A stretch of DNA of 64,000 nucleotides from a phage, in the sequence record OZ346219.1. One strand, given 5' to 3'. Both the position numbers and the translations under genes were made by a program. Positions 33 through 59,428 of this stretch are shown here, piece by piece (the first letter of the stretch is position 1; each line of letters starts with the position of its first letter). The notes under the pieces are model-generated. The model was given only the letters and a program-made list of their open reading frames with translations, was not told the DNA's origin and made no database searches.

Positions 33-2711
33 TTAAATGTCAAACAGGTCTGTAAGAGATGCCACTTTTTCATATTGCAGCTTTGCAGCCGTGGTAATGT
101 TCTCCAGTGGTTTGACGAAAGTCTTATTAAACAACAAAGGCCAGTCCAACCACTTCAACACCTCTGATTCAATTTCTGGAGGAATACGAGTACCAGACAA
201 CCAACCAAAACAGATTTCTCCAAACGGATTTCGATCTTTCAGCGGTACAATCATAACCTTCTCGCCTTCACGAATCGGATCTAGTCCGAATTTTCGAGCA
301 TTACGATTATAACACAATACACTCTTAACCGCATATGGACAACCCTTAATCGGATACCCGTTTGAATCGCTGTATTTCTGTAGGTTGTTTGCAGATGATA
401 CCGCAGCAACCTCAAGATAATCAAGTTTTCTAAATTCTTGCTCAAAAATACCGTAGTATTCCTGCAATGACTCTTCACCTTCCTGCAACATACGGCGAAT
501 ACATTCTTTCAGTGATTTCTGACATGCTTTAGGGGTGGAGCTACGTTGCGTTTCCAAGCCCATGATTTTTAGCTTAGGTTCAGCAAAGCGCGTTCCTTCC
601 ATATCCCAAACATTAAGAGCATAACGCTTTTTACCAGTCCAGAATCCACCGATACCCGCAGATTTCAATGGAGGACCAGCAATTGCCTCACGGTCCATAA
701 ACATCAAGTGCTCATAGTTGTTCATGTACTCGCATAACTCGCGATATCCCTTGTCGATAATAGGTTCCATTCGATGTTTACCGAAATTATCAAGGAAGTC
801 AACAAGTTTTTCGGTATCGTCGAAACGGTCTTCCCCGCCAACCTTATCAACAACATTGTTAACCAGCACATAAACGGAGTCAGTATCACAATAACGAACA
901 TATGCAAAATCGGTTGTTCCACAAAGCTCGTTTAAGTATTCGTTAATCTTACGCTCAATCCACTGAATTGCAAGCTGACCAAACAAGGTGATCGCACTAG
1001 CGTTACGGAGATCATAAAAACGGAATTTAGGATTCCCCAACGCACCATAAAGGGAGTTGATCAAAACTTTACGAGAAAGCTGGTTTGTATTGCACAAGAT
1101 CGACTCGTCTTTACATTCTTCCAGCAATTTCTCTAAGGCATCTTTACTTAATTCAGAAAGCATCGATTTAAACGCTTCATCAAAGTCGTGACGCACTTCA
1201 ACGCTATAGTTAATGGTTCCTCCATAAACATGATTTTCATCGTGTAGAATCGCTTTACAGAGTTCAGCATTGCGATCACATGCCAACATCATGTTTTTGT
1301 ACTGCTTACGCTGATCGAATACCTTTTTAATCTCAATCGGTACGATACCGTGAATATCTTTTCTATACATCCATCCGTTAGGCGAGCAAGAATACTCATC
1401 ACTCGGACGTGGTGCAGTTTTATTGATATACTCGTGCATCGGTGCAGCATCAAAAGATCCAGCGATTGTTTCAGGCGAAATATTAACCTGTCGAATAATA
1501 GATGGGTACAGACTTGTTAAGTCAAAGCTCATCATCCAACGGTAAGCATTCGGCACAGGTTCTTTTACGAATGCGCCTGGATACGTCTGCTTAGGCTGTA
1601 TCTTATTTTCCGGTACTACTTTACCCTCAGCTTTCAGAGATCCGAAGATAATAGCATCCCATACTTTCATCGGGTTATAAACATGGTTAAATTTAATCTT
1701 TGCATAGAAACATAGACTATACACAAGATCGATAAATCCACGCTTTTTATCAATCGCCAGCACACGATCAACGTCGCCGATGTTATAATCGATGTAAAGT
1801 TGATGGTTGTCATCACGCAATTTCTTTAACGGACCATCATAATCAACCTTACCGATTCCTGTCTCATATTCAGCAACATAATCTAATGCATATGTTGGTT
1901 GAGTCGTAAAGCTAAATTTCTTGTACAGGTCAATATAATCAAGGCTTTCGATCCCCATGATCGTAAATGCTTCACGCTCGTTGCCAAAATCATCCTGTGA
2001 GATTCGGGATTTAATCTTACCGCACGGGCTTAGACGGTTAGCGGTTCTACTTCCGAACTTATTACTGATACGTTTAATGATATATGGAATATCGAATGTT
2101 TCTGTGTTCCAGCCAGTGAAACCAACGGGTCGGTTTTCCTCAAAGAATCGGATGTATTCTAACAGCAATTCATCTTCTGTGTCATAGACGTTATAAACAA
2201 CGCGCTCTACAATATCAGGTCGAAGAATAGACTTGCTTGCTTCCCAGATTTCACCGTTTTTTCCTTTCAAATCAAATACAAAGAAACGATCATGTACGGA
2301 ATCATAATGCGTAATTGCATCGATAGGATATTTCGCTTCTTCTGGTTTAGGAAATTCCGGTGCAGTGACCTCGATATCAACCCATGCTACACGGATTTTA
2401 TTTCGGTCATATCGAATCTCGCCTTTATATGTATCGGACAGATAGGAGATGATAAAATCATCCATCCCTAGTGCCTCCTGCCCCATTTCTCCCATCTTTT
2501 TACGCCATTTGTTGGCCTCGTTCATAGAGGGGAATTTTTTAGCAATGCAAGGCTTGCCATAGATATCTTTATAATTCGTAACCATACCAGGCGCGGCATG
2601 ATGAAATAAAGTTGGCGTATATTCAACGTAACGCTCTTGTTCTTGTCCAGCATCATCAATATAACGCTCGTAGATCTTATCACCTACTCGCTCACATGAC
2701 AGAAAATACAT
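33..2711 (-). CDS. 43: DNA polymerase, family B (T4 gp43-like)
   Basis: 892 aa; N-terminus MYFLSCERVGDKIYERYIDD and blocks SLYPSIIRQVNISPETI, YCDTDSVYV match recalled T4/RB69 gp43; AGGAG 8 nt upstream of ATG at 2711 (track start 2741 is GTG); tail ...SLTDLFDI resembles the clamp-binding peptide. Confidence 0.95.
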   Translation of the reverse strand: MYFLSCERVGDKIYERYIDDAGQEQERYVEYTPTLFHHAAPGMVTNYKDIYGKPCIAKKFPSMNEANKWRKKMGEMGQEALGMDDFIISYLSDTYKGEIRYDRNKIRVAWVDIEVTAPEFPKPEEAKYPIDAITHYDSVHDRFFVFDLKGKNGEIWEASKSILRPDIVERVVYNVYDTEDELLLEYIRFFEENRPVGFTGWNTETFDIPYIIKRISNKFGSRTANRLSPCGKIKSRISQDDFGNEREAFTIMGIESLDYIDLYKKFSFTTQPTYALDYVAEYETGIGKVDYDGPLKKLRDDNHQLYIDYNIGDVDRVLAIDKKRGFIDLVYSLCFYAKIKFNHVYNPMKVWDAIIFGSLKAEGKVVPENKIQPKQTYPGAFVKEPVPNAYRWMMSFDLTSLYPSIIRQVNISPETIAGSFDAAPMHEYINKTAPRPSDEYSCSPNGWMYRKDIHGIVPIEIKKVFDQRKQYKNMMLACDRNAELCKAILHDENHVYGGTINYSVEVRHDFDEAFKSMLSELSKDALEKLLEECKDESILCNTNQLSRKVLINSLYGALGNPKFRFYDLRNASAITLFGQLAIQWIERKINEYLNELCGTTDFAYVRYCDTDSVYVLVNNVVDKVGGEDRFDDTEKLVDFLDNFGKHRMEPIIDKGYRELCEYMNNYEHLMFMDREAIAGPPLKSAGIGGFWTGKKRYALNVWDMEGTRFAEPKLKIMGLETQRSSTPKACQKSLKECIRRMLQEGEESLQEYYGIFEQEFRKLDYLEVAAVSSANNLQKYSDSNGYPIKGCPYAVKSVLCYNRNARKFGLDPIREGEKVMIVPLKDRNPFGEICFGWLSGTRIPPEIESEVLKWLDWPLLFNKTFVKPLENITTAAKLQYEKVASLTDLFDI

Positions 2712-4776: not shown

Positions 4777-5463
4777 TTAGTCGGTGTAGCTGGAGTCAAG
4801 GTCACACGCGATCATATAAGATACGGTTTCACTTGCCAGCCATACAGCCTTACGGCGAGTGAAGCTCAGTTTGTAATCGCCGAAGTCAGTAGCAACCAGT
4901 TTCATGTTATCTTTACGAATAAAGAAATGGAAGTCTGCGGTTCCGGTATATTCGCCCATGTCAAGACAAAACATCTCATTAGGATTATTTTTGTCAATCT
5001 CTTCCCAACCTTTGATCATCAGACGACCATCAATCGGAAGAAATTCAAGGCGGTCCACTTTAAGCTGATTGCTCATTTTCATAAGCTGTTTCAGATCGTC
5101 GTTGCTCAGTTCGTAATCTACATCGCTTGCAGGTGGAGTAACTCGGCCTTTCGGTGATACGATAGCAGCAGCACTAGCACCAGGATAATTAATTTTCAGA
5201 CGATCATTAGACACACGAATGTTTCCGGTGCGGTCATCAACCGTAATATCTGCTTCATCGCCTACCAGATTCAGAATACCCAAGAAAGAGTTAAGATCAT
5301 AGATCCCAATTTCGTGTTCCAGTTCTTGATTCAGAGTCGCTTCACCATATACAACGTTTGTCATGTTTTTGGTGATCAGGACGTTTCCTTTTTTCAGGAT
5401 GATACCTGGGTTAATAGCGGAAAAGTTTTTCAGGGTAGCAATGGTTTCTTTAGTCAGTTTCAT
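4777..5463 (-). CDS. 45: Sliding clamp (gp45-like)
   Basis: 228 aa, same length as T4 gp45; MKLTKETIATLKNF aligns to T4 MKLSKDTTALLKNF; ATG 5463 with AGGTGA SD (track start TTG). Confidence 0.9.
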   Translation of the reverse strand: MKLTKETIATLKNFSAINPGIILKKGNVLITKNMTNVVYGEATLNQELEHEIGIYDLNSFLGILNLVGDEADITVDDRTGNIRVSNDRLKINYPGASAAAIVSPKGRVTPPASDVDYELSNDDLKQLMKMSNQLKVDRLEFLPIDGRLMIKGWEEIDKNNPNEMFCLDMGEYTGTADFHFFIRKDNMKLVATDFGDYKLSFTRRKAVWLASETVSYMIACDLDSSYTD

Positions 5464-10983: not shown

Positions 10984-11217
10984 TTATTTTCCTTCTGGGA
11001 TATAGTCGATGATTAAAGAAAATTCATCTTCTGATACATTATAGCTATGTGAGATTGTACCCGTAAAGACCTCAAGATCCGGTGATTTGATATTGCACGG
11101 ATCGATAATCACCGGAACGCCGCAATCTCTCAAAAATAATTTGGCGAAATACGGCACAAGGTCAGTTTCAAACTCTGCTTCTTCCAGCAAACGGGAAATG
11201 TTAATTTTCAATCTCAT
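10984..11217 (-). CDS. Hypothetical protein
   Basis: 77-aa ORF; start overlaps 3' end of gene 55; weak SD. Confidence 0.35.
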
Positions 11218-11734
11218 AAAATTGGTCCAAGCTAGGCAATTCCTCGGTCAATACATCTTCAACCTTTGGCGCTTTCGGTTTATTGACCGATTCCTCGTAG
11301 TTGTTGATTTTATCGTAAATGTCCTGTATGAATGCCTCATCAGCAATCTGGCACATATCAGCGTCGCGTTCGTCATATACATGATGCACAAAATATTTGT
11401 ATTTTGCGGCTGTCGCTGTTCTCTCTTTTTTAATGCGCTGTACAAAAGCATTAAAGCACGCTTGCGTGATGTAAGCATGAGGATTTTTATACTTTGTCTC
11501 GTCAAAATTAATCAAACCCTTGACCGCCGCTTCGATTCCGTCGTCGATCATTTCTTCGCGCCACGTTTGACTATAACCAGAAAAGTTAAAACGACGTGAT
11601 AGATTTTTAGAGATTTGCATAATTGCTAGGCCGATTTGATCGCTCATTGGAACTTGCCGACCTTCTGCTGCAATTTGTTGTTTCCAACGGCAAATTTCTT
11701 CGTAAAGCTCTTTATTGTTTACATAATCAGACAC
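11201..11734 (-). CDS. 55: Late-transcription sigma factor (gp55-like)
   Basis: 177 aa; [42 protein letters not shown] and tail [11 protein letters not shown] match recalled T4 gp55; apparent GTG start with GAGGGTG SD. Confidence 0.9.
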
Positions 11735-18123: not shown

Positions 18124-18151
18124 ATTATACATTAGCTAATCATGTTGTCAA
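18124..18151 (-). promoter_or_regulatory. Sigma70-like early promoter
   Basis: Minus strand TTGACA-N16-TATAAT immediately after the nrdD terminator. Confidence 0.6.
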
Positions 18152-22357: not shown

Positions 22358-23170
22358 TCAATCTACGTTAGTTACATAAACTTCTTGTGTATCAGAAGAC
22401 TTGCCACCTGAACGATCTAGGCAATAGGTCTTATTCAACAGGACGCAGTTTAAATCATTCCGCTTGATAAAGTCAAGAAGATGATCATTTACCTTTCCCT
22501 TATGATGTGTGACATTACTTATACCAAACTGAAAACCACGCGCCATAATAGATTCTACCCACTGATAGAATTTAATCTCTTCCTCGTCACTCCAGAACTT
22601 ATTATATTCCGCAGAAGTGATAAGGTACGGCGGGTCCAAATAAACGAAATCACCTGGCAAGATCTCGATCTCGTCATAACGACCAGACGTAAAACTGATT
22701 CGACCGTCTTTGTTTTCTTCCTTAAAATTCAGGACACGCTCTACCGCGTTTTCGTTAAAAGTCCGGCGACCAAAATTAGCATTAAATTCGCCCTTCCTGT
22801 TATGACGGTTAATGTTGCTAAAACTGTGCTGAATCAGAACAAACAGAGATAGCGGATCTGGATTCTCATTATACTTCTTACGGAATGCCATGTAAGCATC
22901 TTTATCATCACGAGACAAACCATTTTCGGCAATAATCCTCTTGATCATAAAAACCGGATCAGGACACTCATCAATGACCTTGTAAGCGTCAATTAAGCGG
23001 TGATCATAGTCATTAGCCAGCACATCCCCTTCGACGTACAGAGACACGCTCAAGCCACCACAAAAGGCATCGACAAAGCGGTTATAGTGCTTAGGGAAAT
23101 ACTTACTAACACCAGGCAATAACTTTTCCTTATTGCCCGTATAGGGAATTAAACCTAATGCTTTCTTCAT
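22358..23170 (-). CDS. dam: DNA adenine methyltransferase (Dam-like)
   Basis: 270 aa; FVDAFCGGLSVSL (motif I) and DFVYLDPPY (motif IV); aligns to recalled T4 Dam. Confidence 0.9.
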   Translation of the reverse strand: MKKALGLIPYTGNKEKLLPGVSKYFPKHYNRFVDAFCGGLSVSLYVEGDVLANDYDHRLIDAYKVIDECPDPVFMIKRIIAENGLSRDDKDAYMAFRKKYNENPDPLSLFVLIQHSFSNINRHNRKGEFNANFGRRTFNENAVERVLNFKEENKDGRISFTSGRYDEIEILPGDFVYLDPPYLITSAEYNKFWSDEEEIKFYQWVESIMARGFQFGISNVTHHKGKVNDHLLDFIKRNDLNCVLLNKTYCLDRSGGKSSDTQEVYVTNVD

Positions 23171-24728: not shown

Positions 24729-24798
24729 AATATAATCCTCACATCGTTCATTTGATGCGGTCATTATATGATAACCGCATTTTCATGTCAACAGTTTT

Positions 24799-27728: not shown

Positions 27729-27756
27729 ATTATAGCATTGTGATTATCTTTGTCAA
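27729..27756 (-). promoter_or_regulatory. Sigma70-like early promoter
   Basis: TTGACA-N16-TATAAT after terminator 27771-27795. Confidence 0.6.
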
Positions 27757-39904: not shown

Positions 39905-40090
39905 TCAGAAATATGCAATATAGTTTGCCAGTCCTACAGAGTCATCATTCGGCATTGCTTTTACTGCCAGTTCAAACCCTGCTTCAACTTTCTGTTTAGC
40001 GGATTCTTCGTTATAACCCCAGATTACCAGAATAGCTACTACGTTTTCTTTGCTTACTGCTTTCAGTGCTTTAGTGATGCGACGTGCCAT
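39905..40090 (-). CDS. Hypothetical small protein
   Basis: ACGGAGAATCAAATT leader downstream of promoter 40137-40165; begins MARR. Confidence 0.4.
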   Translation of the reverse strand: MARRITKALKAVSKENVVAILVIWGYNEESAKQKVEAGFELAVKAMPNDDSVGLANYIAYF

Positions 40091-55900: not shown

Positions 55901-55984
55901 GAACTTGTGGATAAACGGTTGAAGGATAATATAGGGAATCCACGCGATCCGAAGAATCCGACACAGAGGAAAATTAATGGCTAA
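52898..55984 (+). CDS. 7: Baseplate wedge protein gp7
   Basis: 1028 aa (T4 gp7 ~1032); position between 6 and 8. Confidence 0.8.
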   Translation: MIKAPSVTSLTIEKLSANQAYITWDDVGENFFYFVELAETRTRDGEIIPVDELSWVNLGYTAEQNWFEDKNLFPEYYYKFRVAVAAEGFEQSKWVETEEFQTFKTNAYNFSMMREFNLANEFIKEKFTYDNREYVKFNTDLIQASLMKEDFVFSPEYANMTNISNYIVVDENFHEIQDHIEKVCTDINRTMLAEMNGVLYLFERFQPIVKVSNDKGQSWKAYKAFNDRVGNPVSRTCVYQSKTTTYVLGYDRIFYGRQASDTRWRADDVRFSDDTITFAKVGDENDLGFDVEVFGVFSRLTGDTTKYAEAMACSDDYLWVGAKDVIRRIRLKNTPVDTVQGSPTFGEKIFDPDVIRVTGNDKAVIQKMDVIDGKLLVFVTGEVKQRYQDPTKPENVVPSDDAGVYLIGSDGLSFQRVFGNTPQEREYIQHGFSNMSTNGDEVFISHYNHHFESILPDPETAEKYELGEAVKYSQEPTYLTDKKIHQTTFRASYDDLRIWELGPQAYYNEADYTWMRRNGVRVWITNDNRPLVVYPEVIYTQEVDTSGILDQNRVNREVYDKGTVTCYLNNVKFEGFKQYASGVMFHKNTGEIIGFYQFNYRVRDQVGVYWKPTNVAFVAELQNQVREVPWVPVHYDREQDPDLRPLLNKMTPDSFLLENENFRKFSEYYLQFLSDGSGTYYNKLKNLIKNKYPREKDAYEYLWSEMNKRNIYADKNKRDAVVRFFESRKSDFYSTKGVEASYKFLFKLLYNEDVEIEVESQAGLEYDIVVSSTNIDEDIVGRTIYTPTGRANVTYLEREYEGGRLRWRVTIHNLIGRFEEGQVIKSEKTAFEGMILVGVRGKELLSSSIDYINRSRSQYTMKIKSALPVSRYANDVMRFVHPVGFGFIGVTLLTMFINSGLSMKHTETIIQSLKNYKFDSGLPSVYPDRVADLDVDGNIKKDPLTGKALYLTSPLIGEEFPVPPEYDQENSELFHGLKASERRFAMSPLFDQSAVTFSMFRELVDKRLKDNIGNPRDPKNPTQRKING

Positions 55985-56972
55985 TGAAAATAGTGTGATC
56001 TATCGCTCAATCATTACTAGTAAATTCAGAACGGAAAAACTTCTGAATTTCTATAATTCTGTAGGCGATGGGGCAAATCAAATTACAATTTATGGAACGT
56101 TTGGACGTTCGGAGCCGTGGTCAGAAAACGAAAAAGAGGTGGGCTTTGCCCCACCTTATCCGACCGATTCAACGGCTGGTGTTGTTGACATGTGGACCCA
56201 TATGATGGGGGCGGTTAAGATTAACAAATCACTTCTTGATGCGGTTATCCCTCGTAAAGATTGGGGTGATACCGGACAGGATAACCCGCGCACATTCTTT
56301 ATCAATGACATTGTTGTTGTCAACTCAGCACCATATAACCGAACTGATGTTGGTAGCGGCTGGATGGTGTATCGCGTAACCGATGTTCCTGATCGCGGTT
56401 ACTGCTCGATTTCAAGCATTGACGCTAAAGTAGAGTGTTTGAAGTTGGGCGGAAAGTGGACACCAACTCATGAATCAATCGCGCCACCAGTCGGGAAAGG
56501 CGATTCTATTGATATGGGTGACGGATATCGTTGGGAATATCTGTACACAATTCCACCTGATGCGGCGATCAACCGTTGCACCAATGAACATATTGTTGTA
56601 CCGTTCCCCGATGAACTGCGACAAGATCCGGCGCGTTGGGGCTATGACAATGTGATCACCTGGTATAATGACTATAATCTGCTTTATCGGCTGAAAGTAG
56701 TAACTTTGCGTTTTCAGGCTTATATGGACTCTGCGCAATTCCCAACTACCGCGTTAGTGGGTAATACTGGTTTCCGTCAGTTAAGCATTATCCTTAACCC
56801 ATTGGAAAAGAAAGCACGCCCTAGCGATCCAGACGTTAAAGCGGTCAAAGATAAGTACCGACCGCAAGACTTAGAGCCACACTCAGGCGAAATGATCTAC
56901 ATGGAAAACCGACAACCTATCGTTCGGTCATTAGATCAAACAGAACTTGTTTCTGTATTGTTTGAGTTCTAA
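55977..56972 (+). CDS. 8: Baseplate wedge protein gp8
   Basis: 331 aa; VIYRSIITSKFRTEKLLNFYNS, GFAPPYPTDS, CLKLGGKWTP, HSGEMIYMENR align to recalled T4 gp8. Confidence 0.9.
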   Translation: MANENSVIYRSIITSKFRTEKLLNFYNSVGDGANQITIYGTFGRSEPWSENEKEVGFAPPYPTDSTAGVVDMWTHMMGAVKINKSLLDAVIPRKDWGDTGQDNPRTFFINDIVVVNSAPYNRTDVGSGWMVYRVTDVPDRGYCSISSIDAKVECLKLGGKWTPTHESIAPPVGKGDSIDMGDGYRWEYLYTIPPDAAINRCTNEHIVVPFPDELRQDPARWGYDNVITWYNDYNLLYRLKVVTLRFQAYMDSAQFPTTALVGNTGFRQLSIILNPLEKKARPSDPDVKAVKDKYRPQDLEPHSGEMIYMENRQPIVRSLDQTELVSVLFEF

Positions 56973-56985
56973 GTGTATGATTTAA

Positions 56986-57016
56986 AAGCCAATTCTAGAG
57001 AGTTGGCTTTTTCTAT
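56986..57016 (+). terminator. Terminator after gene 8
   Basis: AAGCCAATTCTAGAGAGTTGGCTTTTTCTATTTT. Confidence 0.55.
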
Positions 57017-57024
57017 TTTGGGTG

Positions 57025-57052
57025 TTGACAATCTTGTCTGATAAGGTATAAT
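57025..57052 (+). promoter_or_regulatory. Sigma70-like early promoter inside the late baseplate operon
   Basis: Plus strand TTGACA-N16-TATAAT then leader GCTCACATCTAAACAACGGAGGA, same family as the leader at 18124-18151. Confidence 0.6.
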
Positions 57053-57081
57053 GCTCACATCTAAACAACGGAGGATAAATT

Positions 57082-57339
57082 ATGGCACGTCGTAAATTTA
57101 CAGATAATTGTGAAGCAATTCAGGTATCCCCTTGCGGTTGGGATGTGATCGCGAACGGTGAAAAGATCGGAGAGATCATCGATCATACTCATTCATCACT
57201 AGCCGATTACACCGATGAACTATGGGAGGGTATCAACTTCATGAATGACACTAAACGATTCAAGACTATCGACGAAGCTATCTATTTTGTGTATAATCCA
57301 ACTTTCGGTATGTGGGGAACTAGAAAATGGCACGCGTAA
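57082..57339 (+). CDS. Hypothetical protein (cassette ORF 1)
   Basis: 85 aa; GGAGGATAAATT SD; begins MARR. Confidence 0.45.
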   Translation: MARRKFTDNCEAIQVSPCGWDVIANGEKIGEIIDHTHSSLADYTDELWEGINFMNDTKRFKTIDEAIYFVYNPTFGMWGTRKWHA

Positions 57340-57659
57340 ACATTAAACTACACTACACAATGGGTAAAGCTAAGTTCCCAATGCAAAAGCATTACTATGG
57401 TCTACGTGCACAAGATCCAAAACTCTATGGTACTCATTGGTTTTGTAAACATGATAACCAATGGCACACATACGAAGAAATGCACGAGATGATGAAACAG
57501 GGTATTGAATTGAGTTATTCTAATTATGACCATCGTATAACTTGCATTCGAAAATTGAAACGATGGATTCGTAAGAATCCGCAATTTAAAAACTTTGTGT
57601 TCTTTATGTCTCATGTTTATTTGGGACATAGCGTTACCGTCACAGCAAAGGTTAAATAA
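57327..57659 (+). CDS. Hypothetical protein (cassette ORF 2)
   Basis: 110 aa; basic, His/Trp-rich; overlaps ORF 1 by 13 nt. Confidence 0.45.
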   Translation: MARVNIKLHYTMGKAKFPMQKHYYGLRAQDPKLYGTHWFCKHDNQWHTYEEMHEMMKQGIELSYSNYDHRITCIRKLKRWIRKNPQFKNFVFFMSHVYLGHSVTVTAKVK

Positions 57660-58498
57660 TGGCACGACTTTCTAAACAAGAACAAAAATTACACGATCGG
57701 GTGATGGAGTTGATTAATTCAGATCGCCCATTGACATATGAAGAAAAAGAATTTTGCTATAATAACTATCATGGCGATGGTCTAGGCGGTTCAGGTGCAT
57801 TCTTTACCCCAGAAGGGCTTGCACGGGATTTTACCATCGATGCACATTGCACAGGAAAAGTATTAGATCTTTGTGCTGGGATCGGTCGCTTATCTTTTTG
57901 TATGTTACATCGTTGTAAGCCAGAAAAGATCGTATGCATCGAACTCAATCCAGAATTTGCGCGGATTGGCAAGCGACTATTACCGGAGGCAGAATGGATC
58001 ACCAGCGATGTATTCGAATTTGAGTCAAACGAAAAATTCGATGTGGTGATCAGCAATCCACCCTTCGGGAAAATCAATACAACCGACACAAAGGATGTAT
58101 TTGAGTACACTGGCGGTGAGTTTGAATTTAAGGTTATGACGCTAGGGCAAAAGTTTGCTGATGTTGGCTATTTTATTGTTCCTGTGGGTTCCGCTGGTTT
58201 TGCTTATTCCGGCAGACCTTATTATGACGGGACCATGAAGTCTAATAAATATCTAAAATGGAGCAAACAAACTGGTTTGGTGACTTATGCCGGATGTGGG
58301 ATCGATACATCAATCTATCGCGATGAATGGCACAGTACCAACGTTTTAACAGAAGTGGTTGAGGTTCGGTATTACGAGAAAGAAGCCGTAGAAGCGCCTA
58401 AATCACGCCCTAACGAACAAATAGAAGAAAGTAAGGAGATTACCTTACCGAAACAGGAAAGCGAGTCTGGGACGCTCTCAGATTTGTTTGACATTTAA
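57659..58498 (+). CDS. N6-adenine methyltransferase-like protein (gamma-class motif order) with clamp-binding-like tail
   Basis: 279 aa; motif X GAFFTPEGLARDF, motif I VLDLCAGIGRL, motif IV ISNPPFG; tail ...TLSDLFDI nearly identical to gp43 tail ...SLTDLFDI. Confidence 0.7.
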   Translation: MARLSKQEQKLHDRVMELINSDRPLTYEEKEFCYNNYHGDGLGGSGAFFTPEGLARDFTIDAHCTGKVLDLCAGIGRLSFCMLHRCKPEKIVCIELNPEFARIGKRLLPEAEWITSDVFEFESNEKFDVVISNPPFGKINTTDTKDVFEYTGGEFEFKVMTLGQKFADVGYFIVPVGSAGFAYSGRPYYDGTMKSNKYLKWSKQTGLVTYAGCGIDTSIYRDEWHSTNVLTEVVEVRYYEKEAVEAPKSRPNEQIEESKEITLPKQESESGTLSDLFDI

Positions 58499-58501
58499 TT
58501 A

Positions 58502-58529
58502 TAAGCCGTCCTTGTGGGCGGCTTTTTTG
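58502..58529 (+). terminator. Terminator closing the methyltransferase cassette
   Basis: AAGCCGTCCTTGTGGGCGGCTTTTTTG. Confidence 0.6.
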
Positions 58530-58538
58530 TATGTATTT

Positions 58539-58546
58539 TATAAATA
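58539..58546 (+). promoter_or_regulatory. T4-type late promoter (TATAAATA) for gene 9
   Basis: Exact TATAAATA ~28 nt upstream of gene 9 ATG, just after cassette terminator. Confidence 0.55.
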
Positions 58547-58573
58547 ATACATCATAACATGAGGAATTAAACA

Positions 58574-59428
58574 ATGGCACAAGTTCCAAAGAAAAGAATA
58601 GACACAGGTACTGTCGGCAATCCATCGACTGGCGATATCTTATATGATGGTGGTAATAAAATTAACGATAACTTTGATTCAATATATGACGCATTTGCTG
58701 ATCAGCGGTTTAAAGACGTAGACCACGGAGTGGGAAGAATGGTTATTCATGCAACCGGATACTATCAGAAGCATCCACGTCAAAGCTACGCGGGTTCCGC
58801 TGTTGAGATTGGGAGTCTACACGATATCGATACAACTCAAGGCGCACTTATTGCTATTCTACCTAAAGCAAAGGTCGGCGAGGGTGTTGTATTCATAAAT
58901 AGTAACGGTAGCCTTTCAACGACGACACCGCTCAATATTCGAACTCAAGCAGGTGATTCTATTAGCGGTTATTCCGGTGATGCTACAATAACACAACCAT
59001 TTTCAAAAGTCACTGTTTGGTGTACTGCCGTTGAAGGTAGTCGCGTAACATGGCGATTGGGTATCGAAAGTATGTTTACCGATACAACAACGCCATTAGA
59101 TAAAACAGTTAACGTAACTGGAGTAGCAACAAACGTTGCTATTGCCGCAAAAACAGAATATGTTTCCATCAAATTATTAACTACCGCTAGCAATACATCC
59201 GGTTCAAAAATGCGTTCAAGTGAAACGCTACTGATGATTGATTCTAAAGCCGGAAAAGTTTATGCGACGGAATATGCAGTTTTGCAGAAGACAGAAGATG
59301 AACTATACACGGTTCGTTATTTCATCGGTTCCGGCGATAAAGTATATGCAGAGTATAAGGCTACTGGCGAAAATATTCGTTTAGCAGTTAAAGCCGTAGA
59401 CACTATTAAAATCGGGGTTGCTACATGA
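58574..59428 (+). CDS. 9: Baseplate wedge / long-fibre attachment protein gp9
   Basis: 284 aa; KKRIDTGTVGNPSTGDILYDGGNKIN, HATGYYQKH, FINSNGS, KIGVA align to recalled T4 gp9; late promoter TATAAATA at 58539-58546. Confidence 0.85.
   Translation: MAQVPKKRIDTGTVGNPSTGDILYDGGNKINDNFDSIYDAFADQRFKDVDHGVGRMVIHATGYYQKHPRQSYAGSAVEIGSLHDIDTTQGALIAILPKAKVGEGVVFINSNGSLSTTTPLNIRTQAGDSISGYSGDATITQPFSKVTVWCTAVEGSRVTWRLGIESMFTDTTTPLDKTVNVTGVATNVAIAAKTEYVSIKLLTTASNTSGSKMRSSETLLMIDSKAGKVYATEYAVLQKTEDELYTVRYFIGSGDKVYAEYKATGENIRLAVKAVDTIKIGVAT

Follow-up and report, generated by a model that had tools for sequence, protein, structure and literature searches.

The 64,000 nucleotides (nt) of phage DNA analysed here (sequence record OZ346219.1, in the following the window) carry between the baseplate genes 8 and 9, at positions 56,973 to 58,573, an insert of three open reading frames (ORF1, ORF2 and a methyltransferase gene). 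The best explanation for this locus, to which a probability of about 55% is assigned, is that the third product acts as an early, orphan, clamp-tethered DNA adenine methyltransferase encoded in an insulated early unit between genes 8 and 9: what was observed directly are the sequence features and how they are distributed, and each functional step is deduced from them. According to nucleotide comparison, Escherichia phage W115 shares 99.8% identity with the region 56700-58800, and RB49, Phi1, JSE, GEC-3S and other Krischvirus members share 95-99%; the window belongs to a Krischvirus (RB49/Phi1-type coliphage). All elements that an initial annotation of the DNA had named for 56973-58573 were found at or within a few bases of the coordinates given there (see Table 1).

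The feature most informative for this reading, the polymerase-like C-terminus of the methyltransferase, had been passed over in the initial annotation. The protein of 279 amino acids (aa; 57659-58498) ends in ...ESGTLSDLFDI, the DNA polymerase gp43 of the same phage in ...EKVASLTDLFDI (last nine residues: ASLTDLFDI); six of the eight terminal positions are identical and the other two are Ser/Thr exchanges. The hydrophobic-acidic C-termini of T4-type gp43, gp55 and gp33 are interchangeable binding epitopes for the gp45 clamp, which serves both as processivity factor and as activator of late transcription and whose ligands share one pocket (PMC2988020); the clamp peptide of T4 gp43 (892-SLDFLF-897) inserts as a one-turn helix into the hydrophobic pocket of the clamp (PMC12746103). 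When a loose pattern for such tails was applied to the 310 stop-to-stop segments of at least 60 aa in the window, matches were confined to gp43, gp55, the methyltransferase and two wrong-strand frames. According to the AlphaFold2 (AF2) model, the methyltransferase consists of a single Rossmann-type domain of approximately 240 aa followed by a disordered tail: the predicted local distance difference test (pLDDT) values of the linker are below 50 for residues 246-273, and a short helix is predicted in the tail itself. The linker is not present in the prophage homologues of 236-242 aa. In a comparison of window, GEC-3S and TB34, the three Krischvirus proteins do not differ in linker or tail, and the tail is retained in a 68%-identical homologue with a different linker. 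Further T4-type phages have tails of their own: KP15 (gp43 ...SLNDLFGDW, methyltransferase ...SDLFTFTIE), Miller (gp43 ...SLNTLFGDDW, methyltransferase ...QNLFTFTIE), POP12 (methyltransferase ...MEFTFKIE) and the metagenomic contig L028 (methyltransferase ...TLDFVDFSEI). As a separate observation, the Krischvirus RNase H (Phi1 rnh, L013 15764-16708, outside the window) begins with MTYNPFTKTTATLNDFFDD…, i.e. it bears the clamp-tail-like TLNDFFDD at its N-terminus.

Clamp-type motifs are also found beyond the T4-type phages. When 1.84 billion representative proteins were searched with a profile, 1051 matched, and 143 of the top matches were aligned; 98 of the aligned representatives extend at least nine residues beyond the catalytic core. 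The canonical beta-clamp motif (Q-phi-x-[LM]-[FL] or Q-phi-x-[LM]-x-[FL], as given in PMC11139829), scored in the last 15 residues, occurs in 26 of these 98 tailed representatives, as compared to control values of 0.12 for random windows of the core and 0.70 for shuffled tails, which corresponds to an about 40- to 200-fold enrichment at the C-termini of the non-T4 homologues; with the inclusion of LF near the end, the number increases to 55 of 98. A lambdoid-phage homologue adjoining the O and P replication genes ends in QQLDLFGEAA and so contains the bacterial beta-clamp motif QL[SD]LF; its replication should use the host clamp. Many of the beta-type tails continue past the motif in small hydrophobic residues (…LFGAAA, …LFEIAA, …LLAA, …LMAA); by analogy, such ends resemble ssrA-like degradation tags, and clamp binding could be coupled to turnover. 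The literature searched yielded no description of a bacterial or phage methyltransferase that binds a clamp, which is not proof of absence: the 2024 review on the beta clamp (PMC11139829) contains neither "methyltransferase" nor "methylase", and the reviews PMC2988020 and PMC9690074 name no methyltransferase among the gp45 ligands, Dnmt1 of eukaryotes (with PCNA) being the sole methyltransferase mentioned as a clamp partner.

The assignment of the 279-aa product as an N6-adenine methyltransferase by the initial annotation was corroborated: motifs X (FFTP, residues 48-51), I (DLCAGIG, 70-76) and IV (NPPF, 133-136) occur in gamma-type order. The best profile match is mad2, a DNA methyltransferase (1.9e-17); models of Type II methyltransferases come next, and those of RNA and protein methyltransferases score weaker (1e-6 to 1e-9). 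In comparisons based on the AF2 model, the nearest solved fold is METTL5, with M.BseCI, HsdM and M.TaqI within 2 Z units of it; a separate target-recognition domain was not detected in the model, the alignments to M.TaqI, M.BseCI and HsdM spanning only the catalytic domains of these enzymes. These structural relations could also be read as those of a METTL5/RsmC/Erm-like RNA methyltransferase that would modify host rRNA or tRNA early in infection instead of DNA. RsmC and PH1948 are indeed the best sequence matches in the PDB, although PH1948 and Ta1320 match only weakly (7e-4 and 5e-3), and the minimal size without target-recognition domain, the label "Predicted RNA methylase" given to a homologue by one Joint Genome Institute source, and the published absence of detectable modification in the DNA of Krischvirus TB34 (see below) would fit such an enzyme. 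However, the strongest profile matches are to mad2 and the Type II models, the DNA methyltransferases lie within 2 Z units of METTL5, and only with a DNA-associated enzyme can C-terminal clamp motifs and neighbourhoods of replication modules be understood; in view of this, an RNA substrate is considered clearly improbable. A release-factor glutamine methyltransferase (PrmC/HemK) was rejected on the score obtained with TIGR03534 (36.6 bits versus an equivalog cut-off of 199.1); the label "release factor glutamine methyltransferase (prmC)" in the records KY683735, MN850615, MN850574, MT478991, MN655998 and MN709127 is a propagated misannotation.

The residues G74, G76, N133 and P135 of the catalytic motifs are invariant in the 144 aligned sequences. 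The window and GEC-3S genes differ by 21 synonymous and 5 nonsynonymous codons; judged from sequence comparison, the methyltransferase gene is under purifying selection. This bears on an explanation in which the tail competes for the clamp pockets and modulates replication or clamp-activated late transcription, methylation being secondary. The near-identity of the tail with that of the polymerase and the single pocket that the gp45 ligands share in replication and late transcription (PMC2988020) would agree with a competitor of this kind; a protein acting purely as a competitor could do without an intact methyltransferase, however, and with catalytic motifs invariant across the family and purifying selection on the gene this explanation appears extremely unlikely.

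The methyltransferase family comprises 299 phage records, approximately 240 of which lie outside Krischvirus and carry the gene elsewhere without ORF1 and ORF2. The RB43-like phage Miller and KP15 have the gene between those of the gp41 helicase and the gp61 primase; further members come from Aeromonas, Sinorhizobium, Dickeya and Brevibacterium phages, and in enterobacterial prophages the gene is the last one at the edge with no nuclease alongside. Other homologues are found next to O/P/NinB or RusA and a replication initiator, and the contexts of tailed members include an SSB gene as neighbour and a ParAB/relaxase plasmid region: the neighbourhoods of the homologues consist of replication or mobile-element maintenance genes. 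Beside the methyltransferase gene of the window, no cognate nuclease and no other restriction-modification or defence gene was detected, the neighbours being two ORFans and baseplate genes. A deviating architecture is present in Dickeya phage JA29 (L025, MH460461 197502-198671) and in P0125, P0127 and P0137, where a second C-terminal domain of 120-145 aa is fused and the short tail is missing; the extension of JA29 resembles part of another methyltransferase. The additional Dam methyltransferase that the initial annotation had placed at 22358-23170 on the minus strand was confirmed as a member of the D12 class.

The upstream boundary of the insert is formed by a hairpin at 56984-57011 with a T-run (−14.3 kcal/mol, z = −3.0 on folding), which begins 12 nt past the gp8 stop codon and ends 13 nt ahead of the −35 box of the promoter at 57025-57052, the sole 12/12 match to TTGACA-N16-TATAAT within 52.5-62 kb; the downstream boundary is a hairpin at 58503-58524, likewise with a T-run (−15.9 kcal/mol, z = −3.8), followed by TATAAATA 28 nt 5' of the gene 9 ATG. 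The two terminators are annotated in the GenBank entries of both GEC-3S and TB34 and the promoter in that of GEC-3S. Perfect promoter matches occur six times in the window (0.14 expected), the other five (TTGACA-N15-18-TATAAT) facing minus-strand early genes. The promoters at 57025(+), 18124(−) and 27729(−) have a common layout of stop codon, hairpin, T-run, TTTTGGG(G)TG, TTGACA...TATAAT and GC(T/A)C(A/G)CAT leader, and the leader family that the initial annotation had ascribed jointly to this promoter and the minus-strand early genes is thereby found again in the flanks of 18124(−) and 27729(−). Two of the five minus-strand promoters bracket gene 43, as reported by Arbiol et al. (2010) for RB49 and phi1. 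A scan of 56800-58700 against Rfam gave only chance-level matches far below the gathering scores.

This arrangement corresponds to a published type of element. RB49 and phi1 each contain about 50 promoter-early stem-loop cassettes (PeSLs), each composed of a stem-loop terminator and a near-perfect sigma70 promoter; the promoter and terminator activities of other PeSLs were demonstrated by lacZ fusions, a few PeSLs lie within the virion modules, there beside genes of unknown function, PeSLs mediate shuffling, and the authors proposed that termination stops early transcription from spilling into late virion genes (Arbiol et al. 2010, PMC2839356). The element at 56984-57052 has every sequence characteristic of the PeSL family, including kinship with PeSLs of the same genome and, for the near-perfect sigma70 promoter typical of PeSLs (TTGACA, about N17, TATAAT), a 12/12 match with N16 at 57025-57052. 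By analogy, its hairpin terminator would stop late read-through from gene 8, the consensus sigma70 promoter would be transcribed by host RNA polymerase directly after infection, and the second terminator would keep early transcription out of gene 9, for which TATAAATA would restart late transcription. Of the insulated cassette proposed by the initial annotation, all sequence elements are present, namely a sigma70-type promoter of its own, a terminator on either side and a new late-promoter motif for gene 9, and insulation is their predicted function.

In T4, genes 8 and 9 are adjacent, as the initial annotation had stated, and separated by 63 base pairs (bp); the gap amounts to 10 bp in Lw1 (Pseudotevenvirus) and to 9 bp in Aeromonas phage 60AhydR15PP, which has the nearest gp8 outside Krischvirus. 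In Krischvirus, the junction is occupied by 1.6 kb that comprise a terminator, a promoter, three coupled ORFs, a terminator and TATAAATA ahead of gene 9. ORF1 and the methyltransferase occur at 90% identity or more in 59 of 59 records with a Krischvirus-type gp8: the insert is lineage-specific and not strain-specific. In contig L028 (gp8 89% identical), the order is gp8, hairpin, TTGACA-N16-TATAAT, methyltransferase (64% identical to that of the window), hairpin, TATAAATA and gp9, and ORF1 and ORF2 are absent from the junction. Since this sister contig has the methyltransferase alone in an insulated insert at the same site, the insulated methyltransferase insertion is the older feature. A recent acquisition by the window phage was rejected, the cassette being fixed in the genus; of the earlier proposal of an acquired early module within a late structural operon, the lineage-specific position inside the baseplate block was borne out, whereas the module is not peculiar to this phage. 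By the standards of the T4 family the island is ordinary, namely a PeSL-bounded accessory module that has been annotated since RB49 and is already in GenBank.

The stop and start codons overlap along all three ORFs. Each ORF starts with ATGGCACG, as had been stated by the initial annotation; only one further copy was found in the window, at 40083 on the minus strand. One predicted transcription unit, the overlapping codons, the common start sequence and the missing target-recognition domain of the methyltransferase could be taken to indicate a three-component system, with ORF1 and ORF2 as, for instance, specificity or regulatory subunits; the initial annotation had likewise considered one uncharacterised system. 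The distribution of the genes does not support this. Homologues of ORF1 and ORF2 were detected only in Krischvirus and in rV5-like Vequintavirus (58-70% identity), and in Vequintavirus FV3 both are adjacent with the same overlapping junction and without a methyltransferase nearby; conversely, the methyltransferase occurs without them at the 8/9 site of L028, in the approximately 240 other phage records and in many prophages. A three-gene system was for this reason rejected and is rated very unlikely: ORF1 and ORF2 probably form a translationally coupled ORFan pair and a module separable from the methyltransferase.

The earlier statement that the two upstream ORFs (85 and 110 aa) are without recognisable motif agrees with the domain, defence-library and PDB searches: neither has a match in Pfam, NCBIfam or PADLOC, except for a sub-threshold WWE hit of ORF2 (E 0.06), and the PDB sequence searches were empty or yielded noise. 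In PHROGs, they fall into families of unknown function (phrog_16603 and phrog_12630), and among 5.8 billion proteins only near-identical phage copies were retrieved. The AF2 model of ORF2, based on a 4-sequence alignment, is of low confidence (pLDDT 60.9) and had no Foldseek match against the PDB at E <1. ORF2 exists as two alleles within the genus (39 versus 20 records), with a sharply bounded patch at approximately 57300-57560 of 57-60% nucleotide identity to GEC-3S in surrounding DNA of 97-100%, and the GEC-3S/RB49 allele is nearer to the Vequintavirus version. The divergent patch suggests allele replacement or diversifying selection; by analogy, host-interaction or anti-defence genes show variation of this type. 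In the window, the ORF1-ORF2 segment missing from L028 is bordered by the ATGGCACG copies at 57082 and 57659, and in FV3 ORF1 starts with ATGTCACT and ORF2 with ATGGCACA. Speculatively, these repeats may be a microhomology junction left by the insertion of ORF1-ORF2 at the methyltransferase start codon, which fits L028 and FV3.

For the clamp-tethered DNA methyltransferase, the following course is conceivable: due to its early expression, the enzyme would be present at the onset of replication; the TLSDLFDI tail would attach it to gp45 clamps loaded on phage DNA under replication, and adenines of the clamp-loaded, newly made phage DNA would be methylated. Tethering would provide a weakly DNA-binding enzyme with local concentration and processivity and so offset the missing DNA-recognition domain. 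The likely benefit would be that a phage with unmodified cytosines is shielded from host restriction at sites outside the GATC of Dam, and an anti-restriction role of the locus, as suggested by the initial annotation, is plausible. The cytosines of TB34, which has the same cassette, are canonical (PMC13390438), so that protection by extra methylation against host restriction beyond Dam GATC is plausible.

Several points weigh against this reading. DNA methylation, clamp binding and early timing are predictions for this locus. HPLC/MS (high-performance liquid chromatography/mass spectrometry) of TB34 detected no modified DNA (PMC13390438); the report covers cytosine derivatives only and never mentions adenine methylation, and it argues at most against dense, non-specific adenine methylation. 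An adenine methylome of a Krischvirus was not found in the literature searched, which is not proof of its absence. According to the same study, phage SAP is 99.96% identical to TB34 and contains hydroxymethyl- and glucosylmethyl-cytosine; the genus is without a known synthase or glucosyltransferase gene, and the modification of SAP was left unexplained by the authors. With regard to the insulation, the bare octamer TATAAATA is not enriched in the window (4 found versus approximately 6 expected) and was dropped as statistical evidence; its role as late promoter is argued from its position. Concerning the tail, 45 of the 144 aligned representatives have none or fewer than nine extra residues, among them the Aeromonas T4-type phage AS-zj, phiM12 and the enterobacterial prophage-edge copies; since about a third of the representatives are without a tail, it is not needed for catalysis. 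Finally, gene 43 and the methyltransferase gene end in the same 14 nt, TGTTTGACATTTAA, which contain TTGACA. In gene 43, which ends …CTG TTT GAC ATT TAA, this hexamer is the −35 box of the perfect sigma70 promoter at 16-43(−) and part of a PeSL, so that the Krischvirus tail could originate from PeSL-associated recombination; the methyltransferase copy has no −10 box downstream, and over the last 27 nt of both genes 21 are identical.

These last points would be accounted for by an ordinary, free-diffusing orphan DNA adenine methyltransferase similar to Dam, whose tail would have arisen neutrally through recombination close to a PeSL and would be without function at the clamp: the shared 14 nt overlap the PeSL −35 box in gene 43, PeSLs are known to mediate shuffling, and many homologues work tailless. 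A recombination by-product does not, however, explain why hydrophobic-acidic tails of differing sequence are present in independent T4-type lineages (KP15, Miller, POP12 and L028), why beta-clamp motifs are enriched at the C-termini of non-T4 homologues, or why the tail is kept together with its linker in window, GEC-3S and TB34 and despite another linker in the 68%-identical homologue. The free-diffusing enzyme is consequently judged unlikely, and a clamp-tethered enzyme is preferred.

Table 1. Features of the gene 8/gene 9 junction and related loci of the window (positions in OZ346219.1 as analysed).
Feature	Position	Strand	Evidence or remark
Gene 8, baseplate wedge subunit, last gene of the upstream late unit	55977..56972	+	Pfam Phage-Gp8 1e-143; 66% identity to T4 gp8
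Stem-loop terminator (12-bp stem, 4-nt loop) with T-run; stem-loop half of PeSL	56984..57019	+	Folding; GEC-3S and TB34 annotation
Sigma70-type early promoter TTGACA-N16-TATAAT; promoter half of PeSL	57025..57052	+	12/12 consensus; annotated promoter in GEC-3S
Shine-Dalgarno GGAGGA, 6 nt 5' of ORF1 ATG	57070..57075	+	Sequence reading
ORF1, 85 aa, ORFan, phrog_16603	57082..57339	+	Only Krischvirus and Vequintavirus; no domain or PDB match
ORF2, 110 aa, ORFan, phrog_12630; 13-nt overlap with ORF1 end	57327..57659	+	
Methyltransferase catalytic core, aa 1-240: N-terminal two-helix extension, motifs X/I/IV	57659..58378	+	
Methyltransferase acidic/polar disordered linker, aa 241-271	58379..58471	+	pLDDT <50 at residues 246-273
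Methyltransferase tail TLSDLFDI and stop codon, putative gp45 sliding-clamp-interacting peptide	58472..58498	+	Likeness to gp43 tail
Stem-loop terminator closing the early unit (9-bp stem, 6 G-C pairs) with T-run	58503..58530	+	Folding; GEC-3S and TB34 annotation
TATAAATA, putative T4-type late promoter motif upstream of genes 9-12	58539..58546	+	Sequence; same arrangement in contig L028
Gene 9, baseplate wedge tail-fibre connector	58574..59428	+	Pfam T4_gp9_10_N 1.4e-40
Gene 43 DNA polymerase; last 8 codons (36-59) = SLTDLFDI	33..2711	−	Pfam DNA_pol_B
Gene 45 sliding clamp, proposed docking partner of the methyltransferase tail	4777..5463	−	Pfam gp45-slide_C 3.5e-14
Gene 55 late sigma factor; C-terminus matches clamp-tail pattern	11201..11734	−	Tail-pattern scan; gp55 clamp-binding epitope in PMC2988020
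Dam, D12-class N6-adenine DNA methyltransferase, no clamp tail	22358..23170	−	Pfam MethyltransfD12 5.7e-30; C-terminus ...VYVTNVD
Other perfect promoters	16-43, 2744-2772, 18124-18151, 24763-24791, 27729-27756	− (all)	

The PeSL regulatory type and the GenBank-annotated terminators and promoter were already known; the apparent novelty is that a minimal adenine methyltransferase has a polymerase-like, clamp-type tail, with beta-clamp motifs as counterparts throughout the family. This invites a tentative generalisation, for which the odds are put slightly below even: the protein might belong to a widespread phage and plasmid family of minimal N6-adenine methyltransferases without target-recognition domain that are delivered by the sliding clamp, the tail being swapped to match the replicating clamp, i.e. 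a gp45-type tail copying that of the polymerase in T4-like phages and a QLxLF beta-type tail in temperate phages and plasmids. If true, this would be a prokaryotic and viral counterpart of DNMT1-PCNA, a replication-coupled self-methylation that marks and protects only DNA copied by the replisome of the element. Binding of the tail to the clamp would explain how an enzyme without DNA-recognition domain finds its substrate, would add a new client class to the gp45 and beta-clamp tool-belts, and would give mobile elements a means to methylate their own replicating DNA over the host chromosome. It would also be of relevance for the anti-restriction strategies of phages with unmodified cytosines, e.g. 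RB49-type therapy phages.

In comparison with known systems, the regulatory frame is closest to the PeSLs of RB49 and phi1 (PMC2839356; Comeau et al. 2014, PMC4122927), with which it shares the succession of stop codon, stem-loop terminator, T-rich stretch, near-perfect sigma70 promoter, Shine-Dalgarno sequence and ATG, the placement beside non-core genes, and flanks nearly those of other early promoters in the window. The 8/9 junction is not named in the main text of PMC2839356, however, and the PeSL located there differs in that it faces the plus strand within a late block and is combined with another terminator and a late-promoter motif, by which the whole island would be insulated, an arrangement kept in the sister lineage. 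Among the orphan DNA adenine methyltransferases that phages direct against restriction, the T4-type Dam (D12) is likewise an S-adenosylmethionine-dependent N6-adenine enzyme of a lytic phage without cognate nuclease nearby and with predicted early expression; in contrast to it, the methyltransferase of the window is a minimal core of gamma-type motif order (X-I-IV with NPPF) without target-recognition domain, and it has a clamp-binding-type tail that the Dam of the phage does not have. The modelled fold is similar to that of METTL5/PH1948 (18S rRNA m6A methyltransferase), but the identity is only 16-24%, without a sequence match at the level of the family; METTL5 is an RNA-modifying enzyme that depends on TRMT112, and the phage protein additionally comprises a conserved N-terminal two-helix extension and the clamp-type tail. 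As in gp43, gp55 and gp33, a hydrophobic-acidic peptide is predicted to follow a flexible linker at the very C-terminus; here, by contrast, its bearer is a methyltransferase, with putative binding to gp45. The beta-clamp clients with QL[SD]LF or Q-phi-x-[LM]-[FL] (PMC11139829) compare with the 26 of 98 tailed representatives that bear the motif C-terminally, and not with the window protein, whose tail is of gp45-type; for the beta-type tails, a further comparison is offered by MuC of phage Mu, which uses the beta clamp (PMC12867686). In concept, the proposed enzyme resembles DNMT1-PCNA, in which a DNA methyltransferase is brought to new DNA via a short clamp-binding motif (PMC9690074): this is an analogy only, between C5-cytosine and N6-adenine methylation by unrelated families, with another clamp and in the setting of a virus or mobile element.

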